A DNA stretch of 62,313 bases, filler included. It is 9 parts of 9 records of this genome, joined end to end, with 100 filler letters (N's around TTAATTAATTAA, not from the genome) between each part and the next. Parts side by side here need not be neighbours in the genome. Positions count along the whole stretch, not along the records: positions 37,877 to 44,770 come from SRR31156797_37196; 8 more parts are not named here. The stretch is one strand, 5' to 3'. Shown piece after piece: positions 7,789 through 44,770 of the stretch. The notes beneath the pieces were generated by a model. It saw nothing but the letters and a program-made list of their open reading frames with translations, had not been told where the DNA came from and made no database searches. A program made the position numbers and the translations under genes. How positions within the stretch are numbered: position 1 is the first letter of the stretch; every line of letters starts with the position of its first letter.

Positions 7789-7888
7789 NNNNNNNNNNNN
7801 NNNNNNNNNNNNNNNNNNNNNNNNNNNNNNNNTTAATTAATTAANNNNNNNNNNNNNNNNNNNNNNNNNNNNNNNNNNNNNNNNNNNN
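7789..7888. other. Artificial contig linker
   Basis: 44 N + TTAATTAATTAA (stops in all six frames) + 44 N. Confidence 0.99.
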
Positions 7889-37876: not shown

Positions 37877-38456
<580 letters not shown>

Positions 38457-38511
38457 TCAGGCCTGCTCCCCAAAGCGTCCCGGCTCCGATCCGCGGAGCG
38501 CCTCGGGCGCT

Positions 38512-39159
38512 TCAGACCTCGATAATGTTATTGCGTATGCCGAATTTCACCAGATCCACGGCGGTGCGGAGATTCAGCTTCTGCATGATATGGTTTTTAT
38601 GGGATTCCACAGTTCTGACGCTGATAAACAGCTTCTCCGAGATCTCGCTGTTGGTATGGCTGCTGCCCCAGAGCCCCAGGACCTCCAGCTCCCGGGCGCT
38701 CAGGGAATCCACCCCCGCCTGCTCCTCACCCGACTGGATATGGGAGATATACTGCTTCAGAAGCAGCCCGGTTATGGACTTGCTGTAGTAGTCGTGGCCG
38801 CTCCGCAGAGAATAGACTGCCTCCAGCAGGTCTCCCGGGTCGCTTTCGGGTCCGAGAAATCCCTTGGCCCCCGCCTTGACGGTCTGCAGGATGGTCCGTT
38901 CGTCCTCGGAGGAGGAAAGGATGAGGATGCGCAGCTTGGGCATCCGTTTTCCCAGACGCTCCAGCAGTCCCATGATCCTCTTATCCAGACGGGAGGGATT
39001 GAGGATCAGAATGTGCAGCTCCCGAAGCTCCTCCATGGCGAGGAGGGGGCTCAGCGAGTGCTCCTTCAGCACAAGCCTCAGTTCGCCGCTCTCCCCGAAG
39101 AGGCGGCACAGCCCCTCCAGAATCAGTTTATGGTCGCTGTAGATGCCGATGTTTATCAT
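38512..39159 (-). CDS. NarL/LuxR-family response regulator with an atypical receiver
   Basis: LSARELEVL...EISEKLFISVRTVESHKNHIMQKL HTH. The receiver has ILILN in place of the phospho-Asp and GFLGP in place of the Lys. Confidence 0.9.
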   Translation of the reverse strand: MINIGIYSDHKLILEGLCRLFGESGELRLVLKEHSLSPLLAMEELRELHILILNPSRLDKRIMGLLERLGKRMPKLRILILSSSEDERTILQTVKAGAKGFLGPESDPGDLLEAVYSLRSGHDYYSKSITGLLLKQYISHIQSGEEQAGVDSLSARELEVLGLWGSSHTNSEISEKLFISVRTVESHKNHIMQKLNLRTAVDLVKFGIRNNIIEV

Positions 39160-42100
39160 TGCCCTTCCATTATCACCGAAGTTTTCTTCTTACCGTCCAT
39201 CAGGATGCGCAAAGGCTTTTCGAAGCGGACGTGCCTGAAGTAACGGGTCTCGTGTATAAGCTCCTGTGAATACAGCCTGTCCCAGTCGATGAACTCCCTG
39301 GGAGAGGTGCTGTTCACCGAGAAGTAGCCGATATTCATGGAGGTTACGTTATGAAAGAAATGGGAGCCCAGGGAGGAGTCCAGGGGGAAGTTGTCCAGAC
39401 TCATCTCGACGATGATCCGGGCGGCCGAGATCTGAGCCCAGTTGACCGGTATCCCCAGGAAGGGATCCCTGGTCCCCCAGCGCCCCGGCCCGATCAGCAC
39501 ATAGGAACGGTCCTCGTTGATCATAAGGGAGTTCAGATAATCGATCTCTGCGGCCATCTCCTGGGTTTTCAGCTTGTCGAAGGCCCCCTTGTCCACATAG
39601 ATAAGGTCCTGAATGGTCTCGACCTCGCCGTTTCCGAGGCTGGTCTCCGTATAGAGCAGGGCGTCCGAATAGTCCACCTCCTCCAGAGCGGCGGCGCTTC
39701 CGCGGTTCTCCACCATAGGCTTGACCTGGAGGAGATAGAATGTGGGGAGGCCGTTCTCCGCAGGATCCAGATCCACGGCGAACTCGATCTCCACAGGAGA
39801 GCCCAGGGCCTCCTTTATGGTGTTCAGGAGGATCTCCAGGGTATTTGCCAGAGGGATGTATCCGTACTTCAGGACATTGGCGAAGTTCATCACCCGGGGC
39901 CCGGCGGCGGACAGCCCCGGGACGAGCCTGTCGTTCTGGGGATCGTACACGGAGACGCAATGCTTAAGCGAGCCATGGCCCTCGGCCTCGCTGATATCCA
40001 GCAACGCCAGGGAGGCCAGTTCTCCTTCGGCGGCGTAGTCGATCTCGTCCCTGCGGCAGTCCAGAGCGTAGAACTTGAGCTGAGAACCGTTCACCAGGTC
40101 CTTGAGGGAATACATGTCCACCTGGGGATAGCTGGGAGAAAAACGGTAGGAACTCATGCCCTCCACCACATAGCTCCCCAGCCCGAGGGCCACCATGGCG
40201 AAGCCCTCTTCGGGCTTCATATGGGCCACGGGATAGTAGTTGTAGGAGCAGGCGACGCCGCTGATGTGGGGATAGTAGTAGTCGCCGAAACGCTCGCCCG
40301 CCAGCTCCTGTACCACCACGGCCATCTTCTCATCTTCCACCCTGTGATGGATGGCCTTGAAATACTCCCGGGCCTCCCCGGAAAAGACAGAGGCGAACAC
40401 CAGCTTCACCGCCTGTTCCAGCTTCCGGAGGGTCTGCTCTTTCCGGTCTTCCCTGTTGGGGATGATATAGGTATGGAACACCCCGGCGAAGGGCTGGGTG
40501 AAGGAGTCTTCCGACAGACTGGAGGAGCGGATGGCCAGGGGGCGGTCCGCCTGATCCAGAAAGGCCCGGAGCTTTCGCAACAGCCCCTCCGAGAGCCTGC
40601 CGTTCATAAACTGCATCTTGGTGTTTTCAAAGTCCCGCCCCCTGCCGGAGACGCGGTCGTAGATCCTGTTTTCACGGATAAAGCGATCGAATTCTTCGGT
40701 CCCGATGATGGCGGTACGGGGCATGCGTATATTGATCTGAGAGGAAACGGCCGAATAGTCCAGGTTGTAGATCAGGGTATTGATGAAGGCCAGTCCGCGG
40801 CCCTTGCCCCCCAGAGATCCCCCCGAAAGGGTCACGATGTTCTTCTCGTCGAAGACCATGCCCTCCTCGAAGCGCAGGATCTTGCCCCGTTTCTTTTCGT
40901 CCAGATAGCTCCTTATGGTTTCCAGGGTGCGCTCCCGCAGGTCGGGCACCTCGGACAGCTCGGTAATCCTCATGGGATTCAGGGTCTTCGCCAGCTTGAT
41001 CTCCCCCCGGGCCATCAGCCAGATGGAGAACTGATTCTCCACGGCGTGGGCGAAGATGGACTCATCGGGTACGACGGACAGGAGCTGCTCGAATTCTCTC
41101 AGGGTTTTCGCTTCGGCGATCCGATGCCCCTTGGCGTCGCGGAAGATGAAATCGCCGAATCCCAGATAGTAGTTCAGGAACCCCTTCAGATCCTTCAGCA
41201 GGGTTTCGGAGTTTTTATTGATAAAGAAGGCGTCCAGCTCTTCGGCGTACCGCCTGCTGCCGTTGTCCGAGGACTGAAGGATCACCGGCAGATTGATCAT
41301 ATGCCCTTTCACATAGCGGAGGAATTTCAGACCGGCCTGCTTATCCGCCTGCCCCTGATACTCGAATTCCATATCCGAGATGACGCAGAGCAGATAGTCC
41401 CTGTACTTGTTGTACAGGTGCATGGCGTCCTCATAGTTCCGGGCCAGCAGGATCTTGGGGCGGGAACGCATCTTGCAGATCTTGTCCAGCTCGTTTCTCT
41501 CCACCTCGGGAAGGAGCTGCTGGACCTGTTCGAAGACGATCTCGTAGAGCATCTGCAGATACTTGGAATAGTAGAGGCAGGAATCCTCCACCAGCAGGAT
41601 CACCCGGACCAGCCCCACCTGGGTATCATTGCCCACGTTGGCCTTGTCCTCTATGGATTTGACGATGGAGAAAAGGATCTGGGAGTCGCCGTTCCAGAAA
41701 AACAGATTGTCCAGGGTCCTGGAGGAGGCGACCAGCTCCTCGAAATGGCGCAGCTTGTCCTTCTGGTTGAGCAGCAGGTAGACCGGAAGAGCGGGCCTCT
41801 TCCCCCTGATCTTCTCACTGAGGACGGAGGGGTGCTCGGGATCCAGTCCCACCATGATGATGACCAGATCGAAGGACTTGGCATCCAGCATCTCCATGGC
41901 TTCCTCGTCTGTGGTCACCCCGGTTATCCGGGGCAGGGAAAAGAGGCTGTACTGGTAGATCTCCCCCATAAAGCGTTCGAAGAATCCGTCTTCGTTGCCC
42001 AGGATGAAGGCGTCGTAGAGGGTCGCCACGAAGAGGATCTCCTTGACCTTGTAGCGCATCATATCCAGATAGATGTATTTGTCCAGAACCTGCTGGTTGA

Positions 42101-43310
42101 AGAAGAGCTGGAGAGGGCCTTTGTTGGTCACCAGGGACTTCTTATACTCCTCCTGGGCCTCGAGCTCATAGGTCTTATGGGCGTTCTTCCTGTAGAAGTC
42201 ACGCCCCTTGAAATCATTGAGATAGGCGCTGATCAGCTTGGCGATATTCACCAGAAGGTCCCGCTCCTCCTTGAGAAAGGGGCCCTCGTCGGACGGGGGC
42301 ATCTCCTGCTTATAGACCACCTGCAGGAAGCCCTTCTTATTGTCGATGGTGACGAAATGCTCCGTCTGTTTCCAGATGGACTCCCGGAAGGAGGAGCTGC
42401 CGTAGTCCTTTCCCTCGAATCGGATGCGCGCCTCGGCGACCTCGGGGTACTGCCAGGACTCCTTGAGGATCTGGGCGATATCCCTGAGGGTTTCCCCCAT
42501 GGGCCTGCACTCGGAGATCAGGGTGGAGGTTCTGTTGATGGCCCCCAGCTCCTTGAGGCGCTCCCCGTACTTTCCGATCATCTGCTCCAGAGCGTCCATG
42601 CCTGCGGAGCCCGCGATCAGGGCGGCCAGATTCACCAGCAGCTCCCGTTCCTCCCTGAGGAAGGGCCCCTCGTCTTCGGGGGGGAACTCTTTGAGATAAC
42701 AGACCTCGATACGCCCTTCTCTTCCGTCGGGCATAACGAAATCCTGGTCCATGGACCAGGAGGTCTGCCTGAAATTCTCGCTCTCGAATGTCAGGCCGTC
42801 GAACAGGATCCTCACAGCCGTAAAACGGGGGTACTGCCAGGCCTCGGGCAGGAGGCCGCAGATCTCCCTGAGCGAATCGTTCAGGGCCAGGTTCTTCTTC
42901 AGGATGGAGTTTGTCAGCCGTATGCCCTTGAGCTCCTTCTGCCTCTCCCTGTTGTCGTGGGACAGACGGGCCAGCCGCCTGCGGGAGATGCATCCGGTAA
43001 GCACCTGGGCGAGAAGCCTCATAAAACCGGGATCCATTCCCGGAACGGAATAGATCTCCAGACTGCCCCTTCCGCCGTCGGTCAGTTCCAGGGGAAACTC
43101 GTCACGCCGGGCGTCGCACTCCACGGAGGGGCTTTCGTAATAGCGTCCGTCCAGGGAGATGCGGACGAAGACGGAGCCAGAGGGCCTGAGCGACGAAGCC
43201 ACAAGCCCGACAAGCCCGCTGATAAAAAGATCGCAGCTTTTATCCTCCGGAGGCAGGGCGACGAGGCTTGAGATCAGCTCCAGCCGCTTTTGTTCCGTAA
43301 GATTGATCAT
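39156..43310 (-). CDS. PEP/pyruvate-binding (PPDK_N ATP-grasp) domain protein with GAF-like repeats and two receiver-like domains
   Basis: GGSLGGKGRGLAF, AIRSSSLSED...FAGVFHT, MAVVVQE, LGLGSYVVEG, EIEFAV...LLQVKP; WQYP...EGPFL repeats; ILLVED...VISD...QSS...FINK; C-terminal GSHFFHN. Confidence 0.88.
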   Translation of the reverse strand: MINLTEQKRLELISSLVALPPEDKSCDLFISGLVGLVASSLRPSGSVFVRISLDGRYYESPSVECDARRDEFPLELTDGGRGSLEIYSVPGMDPGFMRLLAQVLTGCISRRRLARLSHDNRERQKELKGIRLTNSILKKNLALNDSLREICGLLPEAWQYPRFTAVRILFDGLTFESENFRQTSWSMDQDFVMPDGREGRIEVCYLKEFPPEDEGPFLREERELLVNLAALIAGSAGMDALEQMIGKYGERLKELGAINRTSTLISECRPMGETLRDIAQILKESWQYPEVAEARIRFEGKDYGSSSFRESIWKQTEHFVTIDNKKGFLQVVYKQEMPPSDEGPFLKEERDLLVNIAKLISAYLNDFKGRDFYRKNAHKTYELEAQEEYKKSLVTNKGPLQLFFNQQVLDKYIYLDMMRYKVKEILFVATLYDAFILGNEDGFFERFMGEIYQYSLFSLPRITGVTTDEEAMEMLDAKSFDLVIIMVGLDPEHPSVLSEKIRGKRPALPVYLLLNQKDKLRHFEELVASSRTLDNLFFWNGDSQILFSIVKSIEDKANVGNDTQVGLVRVILLVEDSCLYYSKYLQMLYEIVFEQVQQLLPEVERNELDKICKMRSRPKILLARNYEDAMHLYNKYRDYLLCVISDMEFEYQGQADKQAGLKFLRYVKGHMINLPVILQSSDNGSRRYAEELDAFFINKNSETLLKDLKGFLNYYLGFGDFIFRDAKGHRIAEAKTLREFEQLLSVVPDESIFAHAVENQFSIWLMARGEIKLAKTLNPMRITELSEVPDLRERTLETIRSYLDEKKRGKILRFEEGMVFDEKNIVTLSGGSLGGKGRGLAFINTLIYNLDYSAVSSQINIRMPRTAIIGTEEFDRFIRENRIYDRVSGRGRDFENTKMQFMNGRLSEGLLRKLRAFLDQADRPLAIRSSSLSEDSFTQPFAGVFHTYIIPNREDRKEQTLRKLEQAVKLVFASVFSGEAREYFKAIHHRVEDEKMAVVVQELAGERFGDYYYPHISGVACSYNYYPVAHMKPEEGFAMVALGLGSYVVEGMSSYRFSPSYPQVDMYSLKDLVNGSQLKFYALDCRRDEIDYAAEGELASLALLDISEAEGHGSLKHCVSVYDPQNDRLVPGLSAAGPRVMNFANVLKYGYIPLANTLEILLNTIKEALGSPVEIEFAVDLDPAENGLPTFYLLQVKPMVENRGSAAALEEVDYSDALLYTETSLGNGEVETIQDLIYVDKGAFDKLKTQEMAAEIDYLNSLMINEDRSYVLIGPGRWGTRDPFLGIPVNWAQISAARIIVEMSLDNFPLDSSLGSHFFHNVTSMNIGYFSVNSTSPREFIDWDRLYSQELIHETRYFRHVRFEKPLRILMDGKKKTSVIMEGQ

Positions 43311-43383
43311 ATTCCCCCTCCCCTGTCCGGTCCCGTACGATCAGGACGCAGCCCCTTCCGGGACGCCTTCGCCGACTGCCAAC

Positions 43384-43413
43384 ATTATGAGAGGGAGATC
43401 ATCGAAAAGTCAA
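43384..43413 (-). promoter_or_regulatory. Sigma70-type promoter for the 1384-aa gene and its regulator
   Basis: TTGACT-N18-CATAAT. Confidence 0.5.
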
Positions 43414-43443
43414 TTGCGAACGAAAGGCCGTCAGGGACCGGTT

Positions 43444-44577
43444 TCAGGGAGGACAGGAATCGCAGACGACCCTGTTCCGCCCCTTCTCCTTGGCCGTCTT
43501 CAGATGGGACTCGGCCTTCTTTATGATCAGATCGAATGAACTGTCCGGGTGGCTGCGGGTTATCCCTATGCTGACGGTCAGAGGCTCCGGAACCTTCCGA
43601 AAGGGATAGGCCTCGAATTTCTCCCGGACGCGCTGGCCCAGGATGACGGCCTCCTCCTCTACTGTGTCCGGAAGGAGGAAGAGGAAGCTCTCCCCTCCGA
43701 AGCGGTAGATTCTGTCCGACAGGCGCAGAGAGTTCCTCAGCAGATCGGCGGTCTCCTTCAGCACCTCGTCTCCGGCGAGGTGACCCAGATTGTCATTGAC
43801 GGCTCTGAAATGATCCAGATCCATCAGCGCCACGCAAAAGGGACTCTCAGAGCGGCTGCTGCGGGCCAGCTCCTTCTCCAGATCGGCCTTCAGGTAACGC
43901 CTGTTGAACAGCCCTGTAAGAGGATCGGCGGCGCTCTCTATATCCGAACACCTGTACTGCTCCTCCAGAGAGATCCGGTTCTGAAGGTTCTCCATCCGCA
44001 GGGAACGGATGTGGAGATAGACAAACCAGATACAGAGATAGGCGATCAACACGGATGAGATGATAGACAGAGGCTGAGCCACCAGAGCGCCCAGAAACAG
44101 CACGGAAGAGCAGAAGAAGAGCAGCATCAGAGCGCTGAGAAAGGCGAACAGCCCCGGTTCGAGCCACAGGACGGCGACCAGGAAGACAAGGGAAACAGGC
44201 AGGGAGATCAGGTGCCTGCCGTTGGCCAGGGCTATGAAGCTGAGGGCCGATATGAAAAGGCTCTGAAGGGTCAGGTAAGGTTTGAACAGGCGGAAGAACC
44301 CCGTCTGCTCTTCATCTTTTACAGGACGGATAAAGACGGGGATCATAAGCAGGTTCAGTCCCGCCATAGCAAGACTGGCAATCAGACCGCCCTCGAAATA
44401 AAGAACGTCCCTCCCCCCGGTCAACACAATCCTCAACAGGGAGAAGAGGGCGAGTATGACAAAGAGAGCCGGAAGGCTCCGTATGTTCCTTCTGTTGCTG
44501 AGTCTGCGTTCCCTTAAATAGAACTCACGATGCTCATCGGTCCTGAAGAAGATCTCTTTTCTCTTGAATAGCGACAT
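43444..44577 (-). CDS. Membrane-bound GGDEF-domain protein with a degenerate GGESF motif
   Basis: About 6 TM helices; DPLTGLFNRR, DLDHFRAVNDNLGHLAGD, RLSDRIYRFGGESF, AKEKGRN. Confidence 0.9.
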   Translation of the reverse strand: MSLFKRKEIFFRTDEHREFYLRERRLSNRRNIRSLPALFVILALFSLLRIVLTGGRDVLYFEGGLIASLAMAGLNLLMIPVFIRPVKDEEQTGFFRLFKPYLTLQSLFISALSFIALANGRHLISLPVSLVFLVAVLWLEPGLFAFLSALMLLFFCSSVLFLGALVAQPLSIISSVLIAYLCIWFVYLHIRSLRMENLQNRISLEEQYRCSDIESAADPLTGLFNRRYLKADLEKELARSSRSESPFCVALMDLDHFRAVNDNLGHLAGDEVLKETADLLRNSLRLSDRIYRFGGESFLFLLPDTVEEEAVILGQRVREKFEAYPFRKVPEPLTVSIGITRSHPDSSFDLIIKKAESHLKTAKEKGRNRVVCDSCPP

Positions 44578-44663
44578 ACCATAATTCTAGGATCAGAAAC
44601 AGCGGGAGACAAGCAAAAAAGCGGATCTGTTCTTTTTTTTCATAACTAGCTAGAATCGGAACC

Positions 44664-44770
44664 ATGAATACGATCTACCTTATGCGTCACGGCGAGACGG
44701 AATGGAACATAGAGAAACGCTATCAGGGCCGGCTGGATTCCCCCCTGACCGAAACCGGTGAGCTGCGCAC
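44664..44770 (+). CDS. Histidine phosphatase family protein; 3'-partial
   Basis: MNTIYLMRHGETEWN...QGRLDSPLTETG (RHG motif). Confidence 0.88.

Follow-up and report, generated by a model that had tools for sequence, protein, structure and literature searches.

A stretch of 62,313 nucleotides, filler included, hereafter called the window, carries a gene for a 1384-aa multidomain protein, here named BIG, which stands immediately upstream of a LuxR/NarL-type regulator gene and of the start of gdhA, the gene encoding glutamate dehydrogenase (GDH). Our preferred reading, held tentatively, is that BIG is a sensor- and receiver-gated, VadK/RPH-like dikinase which would phosphorylate itself on a histidine and thereby control GDH, at this locus by way of a regulator devoid of the acceptor Asp. 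The evidence comes from the conserved catalytic core and its predicted fold, from the genomic association of the family with gdh, and from the properties of the receivers and of the coupled regulator.

Pfam assigns to BIG a PPDK_N ATP-grasp (residues 832-1204, E 1.4e-35), a DUF5752 domain (residues 733-828, E 2.2e-6) and, weakly, a Response_reg domain; the full order from the N-terminus is three sensor repeats, a pseudo-receiver (REC1), an intact receiver (REC2), DUF5752, the ATP-grasp and a C-terminal domain. The same scan returned neither PEP-utilizers_C, i.e. the TIM barrel for phosphoenolpyruvate (PEP) and pyruvate, nor any third substrate-binding domain, and the protein ends 67 residues beyond His1317; HisKA and HATPase_c are absent from BIG and from the other proteins of its contig. 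A first-pass annotation, made from the letters alone, had described this domain order and these absences correctly, and every motif that it quoted is found in the translation (FDLVIIM, ILLVEDS, CVISD, LQSS, FINK, GFGDFIF, FSIWL, GGKGRG, RSSSLSED, FAG, LGLG, EIEFA, LLQVKP and SLGSHFFHN).

Conservation was assessed throughout on 106 relatives of about 950-1660 aa, taken from the match lists of near-length proteins and of the catalytic module. Within this set the ATP-grasp residues K836 (105), R928 (106), D935 (106), E1176 (106) and Q1195 (105) are nearly invariant. Residues 400-1384 were modelled with AF2 (pLDDT 90.6, pTM 0.83); a Foldseek search with this model gave rifampin phosphotransferase (RPH) as the best match (E 2.7e-13) and also retrieved PEP synthase, pyruvate phosphate dikinase (PPDK) and HpeI; a phmmer search of the whole protein against the PDB gave no match at E <= 1.

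The last 180 residues, folded alone with 72 sequences, yielded a model (pLDDT 91.0, pTM 0.89) in which His1317 is placed within a strand-loop-G-S-H-helix-strand element, a position that we take to be that of T-S-H in PPDK. H1317 is kept in 105 relatives, and R1277, E1302 and G1315 in all 106. A second structure search, independent of Foldseek and covering 48,161 chains, in which Z below 8 can mean a common arrangement, ranked the phosphoryl carrier domain of PPDK 2fm4 as the best match (Z 6.5, 118/128 residues, rmsd 3.8); maize PPDK 383-512 (Z 6.5), RPH 756-867 (Z 6.2), pyruvate kinase (C-terminal domain, Z 5.9) and enzyme I of the phosphotransferase system (PTS; Z 5.2) complete the five relevant entries of its six best, the other entry being a DRTGG protein (Z 6.3). 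The families retrieved are the same ones whose ATP-grasp matches the preceding domain of BIG. Moreover, the two domains superpose jointly on PEP synthase 2ols (VIA Z 27.0, 359 aligned residues, model 414-985 against chain 4-467), on PPDK 1dik (Z 19.5, 412-985 against 6-511) and on RPH (5hv3, Z 26.5, 415-935 against 5-863; 5hv1, Z 26.9). Since these alignments extend beyond the ATP-grasp, which by itself aligns over about 280 residues, the C-terminal domain occupies the place of the His domain in PEP synthase, PPDK and RPH. From the models we conclude that it is probably a divergent swivel-type histidine carrier, presumably phosphorylated on His1317; the predicted structure and the near-invariant His support the swivel fold that the first-pass annotation had put forward for testing.

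The family to which BIG belongs is large. A word-indexed search retrieved at least 7998 near-length relatives, whose named members are annotated as 'hypothetical' or, as the first-pass annotation had stated, as 'PEP/pyruvate-binding domain-containing protein'; the closest among the relatives listed share 63-69% identity and are of Spirochaetales or Oceanispirochaeta-like origin. Relatives also occur in Marinifilum, Draconibacterium and Paludibacter (L058, L059, L008, L016). In a library clustered at 50% identity, 3400 representatives match the catalytic module (residues 720-1384) at E <= 0.001; their commonest length, ~990 aa, corresponds to two receivers, DUF5752, the ATP-grasp and the C-terminal domain. 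A literature search found no paper on the family, in agreement with the earlier remark that no characterisation was known.

Loci for the analysis of gene neighbourhoods were selected solely by similarity to BIG. The genome sample comprises 80 loci, drawn where at least 597 species genomes were matched, of which 78 have a callable BIG open reading frame (ORF) and most bear titles of Bacteroidales or other Bacteroidota; the metagenome sample comprises 80 loci retrieved by means of a profile built on short sequences of the core, at 37-57% identity and mostly of the 990-aa form. In the former, gdh immediately adjoins BIG or a BIG-NarL unit in 41/78 loci and is present within the locus in 44, the adjacent fraction being 30/51 where at least 2.5 kb is available on both sides. 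In the latter, the corresponding figures are 24/79 adjacent and 30/79 within the locus. The linkage suggested at first pass is far beyond chance, because the family is large and adjacency to gdh recurs in two independent collections, and the BIG family therefore probably controls the glutamate dehydrogenase step of nitrogen assimilation. At least four arrangements of BIG and gdh exist: BIG-NarL-gdh (9 loci), a divergent gdh upstream of BIG, which is the most frequent form, gdh downstream of tandem BIG paralogues, a convergent gdh-NarL order, and BIG pairs between two GDH types, whose best NCBIfam models are NF006929 and NF010633. Five genomes that each hold 2-3 BIG genes and 2-3 gdh genes of full length were counted as well: 7 of their 13 gdh genes are no more than about 6 kb away from a BIG gene, a figure that is biased because these genomes came from the sample of BIG loci.

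Tandem paralogues are frequent in Bacteroidales (L021-L077, many loci), where the first paralogue, of about 1150 aa, has GSHFFHN and the second, of about 990 aa, GTHFFQN; at L029, L060, L065 and L068 the pair stands between two GDH genes of different type, the upstream one being divergent. Other recurring neighbours are a 2-oxoacid:ferredoxin oxidoreductase pair (17/80 loci) and NuoE/NuoF-like (9) and GltD/Nfn-like (3) genes. The oxidoreductase pair (POR/POR_N and TPP_enzyme_C, e.g. L054:2903-4744 and L051:4851-5870) is located directly upstream of BIG, in a conserved Omp85-OmpH-OmpH-MurI block (L022-L080).

Taken as a tandem, the two receivers of BIG match PleD (Foldseek, E 1.4e-7). The acceptor column of REC1 is chiefly occupied by residues other than Asp (M 63, T 14, L 7, F 6 and S 5 of 106). 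REC2, which had looked intact from its motifs, is so by conservation as well, with E575 in 99, D576 in 92, D646 in 92, S680 in 99 and K699 in 100 of the relatives, and in the AF2 model it compares with solved receivers at VIA Z 13-14 and a root-mean-square deviation (rmsd) of 2.0-2.4 Å. All 102 BIG ORFs of at least 900 aa at the genome loci keep D646, S680, H1317 and the ATP-grasp residues listed above; one of the 102, the second paralogue of L041, has His in place of K699.

Some members of the family have a core and no receiver. P0133 (572 aa) begins at the ATP-grasp, without receiver or DUF5752, and its length is the same even on longer contigs (up to 39 kb), while P0137 (1639 aa) and P0179 (1523 aa) contain two units of ATP-grasp and His domain and no receiver; the G-[ST]-H motif is kept in all three. 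In P0137 and P0179 the double cores are split by one sensor repeat with the EGPFL..EE..LL motif. According to the first-pass annotation, the receiver was the acceptor of the phosphoryl group of the core. The receiver-less members, and the fact that D646 is less well conserved than the His (92/106 against 105/106), argue against an obligatory His-to-Asp step and favour a receiver that would act as input and an enzyme that would act as output, following the usual logic of response regulators; an in-cis transfer from His1317 to Asp646 may occur in the members that bear a receiver. In 3/80 metagenome loci (L094, L121 and L128) a classical HisKA/HATPase_c histidine kinase gene is no more than a few genes away from BIG. 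A further receiver-less class of ~715-770 aa, made of DUF5752 and the core, was dropped: of 10 candidates checked, 2 are labelled partial, 2 fall into a cluster that also holds proteins of 976 or 1007 aa and 3 are on contigs shorter than 3.2 kb. P0163, also considered as receiver-less, is a fragment.

The window joins at least nine contigs through eight spacers of the form N...TTAATTAATTAA...N, located at 7833, 18077, 23421, 31879, 37821, 44815, 51537 and 57151, and some of the contigs may come from different organisms, as in a mixed bin, since G+C per 2-kb bin spans from 0.33 (at about 24-32 kb) to 0.62. The BIG locus occupies a contig of ~6.9 kb (window about 37877-44770) with all genes on the minus strand; this is its only true context, because genes past the spacers are not neighbours. 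The order on the contig is GGDEF gene, BIG, LuxR/NarL-type gene and gdhA start (Table 1). The overlap of the BIG TGA with the regulator ATG as ATGA, and the gdhA gene that follows, were confirmed as first read, gdhA being reduced by the contig end to its first 130 codons; these residues match the NADP-specific glutamate dehydrogenase model along their whole length (NF006929, E 2.9e-62). A GGAGG-type ribosome-binding site immediately precedes the BIG ATG at 43310. The GGDEF gene is separated from BIG by 133 nt, and tblastn did not find it beside BIG relatives (0/80 loci).

Table 1. Features of the BIG contig in coordinates of the window; res, residues of BIG.
Feature	Coordinates	Strand	Basis or remark
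GGDEF diguanylate cyclase gene; 215-aa N-terminal half unassigned	44577..43444	-	GGDEF E 1.9e-39
Candidate sigma-70-like promoter upstream of BIG, TTGACT-18-CATAAT	43413..43384	-	10/12, consensus match only
BIG, 1384-aa multidomain protein	43310..39156	-	open ORF
Sensor repeat 1 (res 1-117), degenerate	42960..43310	-	alignment of relatives
Sensor repeat 2 (res 118-245), motif ER.KEL...LPEAWQYP...EGPFL.EER.LL	42576..42959	-	alignment; weak GAF hints
Sensor repeat 3 (res 246-372)	42195..42575	-	alignment; weak GAF hints
Pseudo-receiver REC1 (res about 420-560), Met486 at acceptor position	41631..42053	-	alignment; PleD match
Intact receiver REC2 (res about 565-715), D646 codon 41373-41375	41166..41618	-	conservation, structure match
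DUF5752 domain (res about 716-828), H755 and W764 conserved	40827..41165	-	Pfam, conservation
PPDK_N ATP-grasp (res about 829-1204); GGKGRG, RSSS.SED, E1174/E1176 and Q1195 near-invariant	39699..40826	-	Pfam, conservation, structure
C-terminal swivel-type domain (res 1205-1384), G-S-H1317 (codon 39360-39362) at helix start	39159..39698	-	model, conservation
LuxR/NarL-type regulator with pseudo-receiver, 215 aa	39159..38512	-	GerE helix-turn-helix; ATGA overlap with BIG
Palindrome CCGTG-AAA-CACGG, candidate operator	38389..38401	.	122 nt upstream of gdhA ATG
gdhA, first 130 codons, ended by contig end	38267..37878	-	NADP-specific GDH model

Typical relatives measure about 1520 aa and have four N-terminal repeats of ~130 aa; BIG has three, the gap to the GGDEF gene being too short for a fourth. 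Of the three GAF-like units originally described, the three repeats are upheld by alignment, and their GAF identity depends on weak hints: a profile of 51 repeats matched the GAF domain of Nlh2 (4g3v) in the PDB at E 0.0073, in a stretch confined to the first helix, Atlas placed a GAF cluster at 0.90 and rank 17, and the Pfam GAF model matched 1/51 repeats (E 0.0024). A GAF-like nature of the repeats is plausible on these grounds. In DUF5752, H755 is kept in 97/106 and W764 in 105/106 relatives; Atlas retrieved for it only DUF5752 and PPDK_N clusters (0.79-0.85), and a literature search on its function found no paper mentioning the domain.

The regulator coupled to BIG has a GerE helix-turn-helix (Pfam E 2.8e-17) and a Response_reg score of 23 bits, under the cut-off of 30.2. 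It carries Asn at the acceptor position, where 16/17 of the partners covering this position have a residue other than Asp (N 9, S 2, V 2, H, T and E), and the conserved receiver Lys is likewise not kept. The partner therefore has a pseudo-receiver, and the His-to-Asp transfer into it that the first-pass annotation envisaged is excluded. A complex prediction with BIG 400-829, the C-terminal domain and the NarL partner scored 0.01, which is no answer and speaks neither for nor against binding.

Between the regulator and gdhA lies an operator-like palindrome, the only match to a looser pattern on the contig, with a central A-tract inverted relative to the Bacteroidota loci. The regulator-gdhA spacers of relatives share the consensus cTTACGTrAAACACGTAATT (arms TTACGT and ACGTAA), and the palindrome takes there the form TTACGTAAAACACGTAA. 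A strict operator pattern, searched on both strands of 1.06 Mb of loci, gave 13 matches, 10 of which precede or adjoin a called gdh start at a distance of 14-164 nt (the value of 14 reflects an over-long ORF call) and take in 9/9 loci with the NarL-then-gdh order; of the remaining ones, two are inside gdh coding sequence and one elsewhere. The LuxR-type partner is a candidate to bind the palindrome. Operator-like words within gdh coding sequence, ~1240 nt from the start (L004:12890, L007:12477, L152:6280 and L157:1742), are probably a coincidence of conserved peptide. Related palindromes (AAGTGAAACACTT, ACGTGATATACGT) were also observed in gdh-BIG or BIG-gdh spacers without an adjacent LuxR-type gene (L037:1446 and 8509, L020:5838, L076:5801 and L078:5317), and a canonical, Asp-bearing NarL-type regulator, L173 (G003:C1:2756215-2756847), is found ~1.4 kb past the gdh of the L032 BIG-BIG-gdh cluster.

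Under the preferred reading of BIG as a gated autophosphorylating dikinase, the N-terminal repeats, probably GAF-like, would sense small ligands, and the pseudo-receiver with the true receiver (D646) would constitute a PleD-like input module. The ATP-grasp would then use ATP to load His1317, on the swivelling carrier domain, with a phosphoryl group; by analogy, this would be the beta-phosphate, with release of AMP and Pi. Since BIG has neither a PEP/pyruvate barrel nor a rifampin-type substrate domain, the phosphohistidine would be handed to another acceptor, most likely a protein in the path of GDH control. At this locus the acceptor would be the LuxR/NarL-type regulator, which lacks the Asp, is translationally coupled to BIG and would bind the palindrome upstream of gdhA; in relatives without such a partner it could be GDH itself or another factor. 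The analysis establishes the domain folds of the models, the conserved residues, the gene linkage and the operator-like motif, while autophosphorylation, the direction of signal flow, the identity of the acceptor and the ligands are what we infer.

Compared with known systems, the nearest functional precedent for a PPDK-derived autokinase is VadK (Rv1127c), described in PMC13400623 as a truncated PPDK which undergoes ATP- and Mg-dependent autophosphorylation on His422, interacts with methylcitrate-cycle enzymes and has a regulatory role. In the architecture described there, VadK resembles BIG in joining an ATP-binding and a phosphohistidine domain without a PEP/pyruvate barrel, and differs in having no receiver, sensor repeats or DUF5752, in being linked to the methylcitrate cycle rather than to GDH, and in being actinobacterial. 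RPH (5hv1, 5hv3 and 5fbs; VIA Z 26.5-26.9) has the same succession of ATP-grasp first and swivel His domain C-terminal; however, it features a rifampin-binding domain and no signalling domains, whereas BIG has DUF5752, receivers and sensor repeats. PEP synthase and PPDK share with BIG the joint superposition of ATP-grasp and His carrier and the conserved motifs of the nucleotide site, but possess the TIM barrel and T-S-H, in place of which BIG has no barrel, a G-S-H, and a C-terminal domain unrecognised by Pfam PEP-utilizers. On the input side, PleD-type regulators likewise combine one competent and one degenerate receiver with an enzyme domain, although their output is GGDEF, and in BIG the order is reversed (pseudo-receiver first) and a dikinase-like core follows. 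Enzyme I-Ntr (PtsP), the swivel-His phosphotransfer enzyme of the nitrogen PTS, carries a GAF domain, and thus parallels BIG in coupling a sensor to a swivel His carrier (N-terminal domain 5t12 against the C-terminal domain of BIG, Z 4.5); it uses PEP and not ATP as donor, and has no ATP-grasp and no receiver. As for the partner, CsgD and VpsT, named as pseudo-receivers in PMC12632262, are LuxR-type regulators comparable to its GerE helix-turn-helix and receiver-like domain without acceptor Asp; unlike them, the partner of BIG is translationally coupled to a dikinase-like enzyme.

Several observations weigh against the proposed mechanism. The assignment of the swivel domain stands at the level of the fold, with Z 6.5 in the 'common arrangement' range and G-S-H instead of T-S-H as carrier motif. 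Searched alone, the C-terminal domain gave no Foldseek match at E <= 0.001, PPDK chains appearing in the weak list at probability 0.57-0.66; hhalign of 72 C-terminal domains against 5 PPDK swivel domains returned a probability of 0.3, and PF00391 (PEP-utilizers) matched, in 5 genomes with BIG genes, the canonical PPDK only and not BIG. A NarL-type partner stands beside BIG in only 17/80 genome loci and 4/80 metagenome loci, and in 5 genomes without an adjacent one no Asp-less orthologue was found elsewhere, the best hits (up to 247 bits) carrying the canonical Asp. Being rare and without distant Asp-less orthologues, the regulator cannot be the general acceptor, and because of the same low genomic count the transcriptional control of gdhA through NarL, as the first-pass annotation had it, does not hold as the general output of the family. 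Furthermore, an outside kinase feeding REC2 is an assumption, and DUF5752 could be a small-molecule site.

The presence on one chain of an intact receiver and a His carrier, both strongly conserved in the 102 long ORFs, would also suit an in-cis phosphorelay, the surviving form of the first-pass model, in which His1317, once loaded by the ATP-grasp, passes its phosphate to Asp646 of the same protein and phosphorylated REC2 switches an output, e.g. binding or release of the Asp-less regulator. That a swivel His domain hands its phosphate on is established for PPDK and PTS enzyme I, the contig encodes no GHKL kinase, and the compact model would permit the domain contacts. Such a relay is nevertheless unlikely, given that the His domain is kept in receiver-less members, that Asp646 is replaced or missing in 14/106 relatives where the His is lost in 1/106, and that classical histidine kinases are near BIG in a few loci; moreover, as most members have no nearby DNA-binding partner, phosphorylated REC2 would be without an evident output. 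If BIG were instead a regulated metabolic dikinase, phosphorylating a small molecule of the glutamate/2-oxoglutarate node or producing a signal compound, its substrate would bind at DUF5752, with the sensors and receiver doing no more than tune the activity. The top structural matches (PEP synthase, PPDK and RPH) belong to a group whose characterised members mostly act on small molecules, NCBIfam models of PigC and RedH match BIG weakly, the conserved DUF5752 is placed beside the ATP-grasp, and the neighbourhoods include metabolic genes, namely the oxidoreductase pair and the NuoEF-like and GltD/Nfn-like genes. We regard this role as improbable: the robust core-only P0133 does without DUF5752, Pfam finds no third substrate domain, and a protein so rich in signalling domains, with a transcription factor coupled to it, is more readily seen as a regulator than as an enzyme.

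Quite unlikely is a direct GDH kinase, through which either phosphorylated His1317 or the ATP-grasp would modify GDH post-translationally. Adjacency to gdh persists without a regulator gene, including the BIG pairs between two GDH types mentioned above, and reversible inactivation of GDH in Bacteroides fragilis was reportedly described in the 1980s, although a literature search found no such report. VadK, according to PMC13400623, binds the enzymes under its control. Against this, none of the analyses run gave any sign of GDH modification, and the transcription factor with its operator-like site offers a simpler route at this locus. A link to the B. thetaiotaomicron 'trans-acting genes downstream of gdhA' (Baggio and Morrison 1996) was considered and dropped; BT_1971/BT_1972 had wrongly been taken as BIG paralogues, BT_1971 being named catalase in two papers, and in the B. 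thetaiotaomicron control genome DUF5752 had no match, in what is a weak test. Lastly, that an ordinary PEP-synthase-like gene stands near gdhA by chance is highly improbable: many of the sampled loci are Bacteroidales, so shared ancestry inflates the counts, but the link is maintained in the several arrangements and in the second collection, at 37-57% identity, and BIG has no PEP/pyruvate domain.

GDH is the point of entry of ammonium into biomass for many anaerobes, and to our knowledge its regulation in Bacteroidota and spirochaetes is poorly understood. A broader proposal, which we consider doubtful, is that BIG represents a third kind of bacterial phospho-signalling, in which dikinase chemistry replaces the GHKL kinase, the phosphate going to the receiver Asp of the same protein or to a LuxR-type regulator that lacks the Asp, and that the family is the long-missing carbon/nitrogen sensor setting GDH levels in Bacteroidota, Spirochaetota and other phyla without the NtrBC paradigm. 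If BIG is a receiver-gated, His-autophosphorylating enzyme, bacterial signalling chemistry would extend beyond GHKL kinases, after the single precedent of VadK, and the BIG family would provide a testable handle on carbon and nitrogen control in gut and sediment anaerobes.

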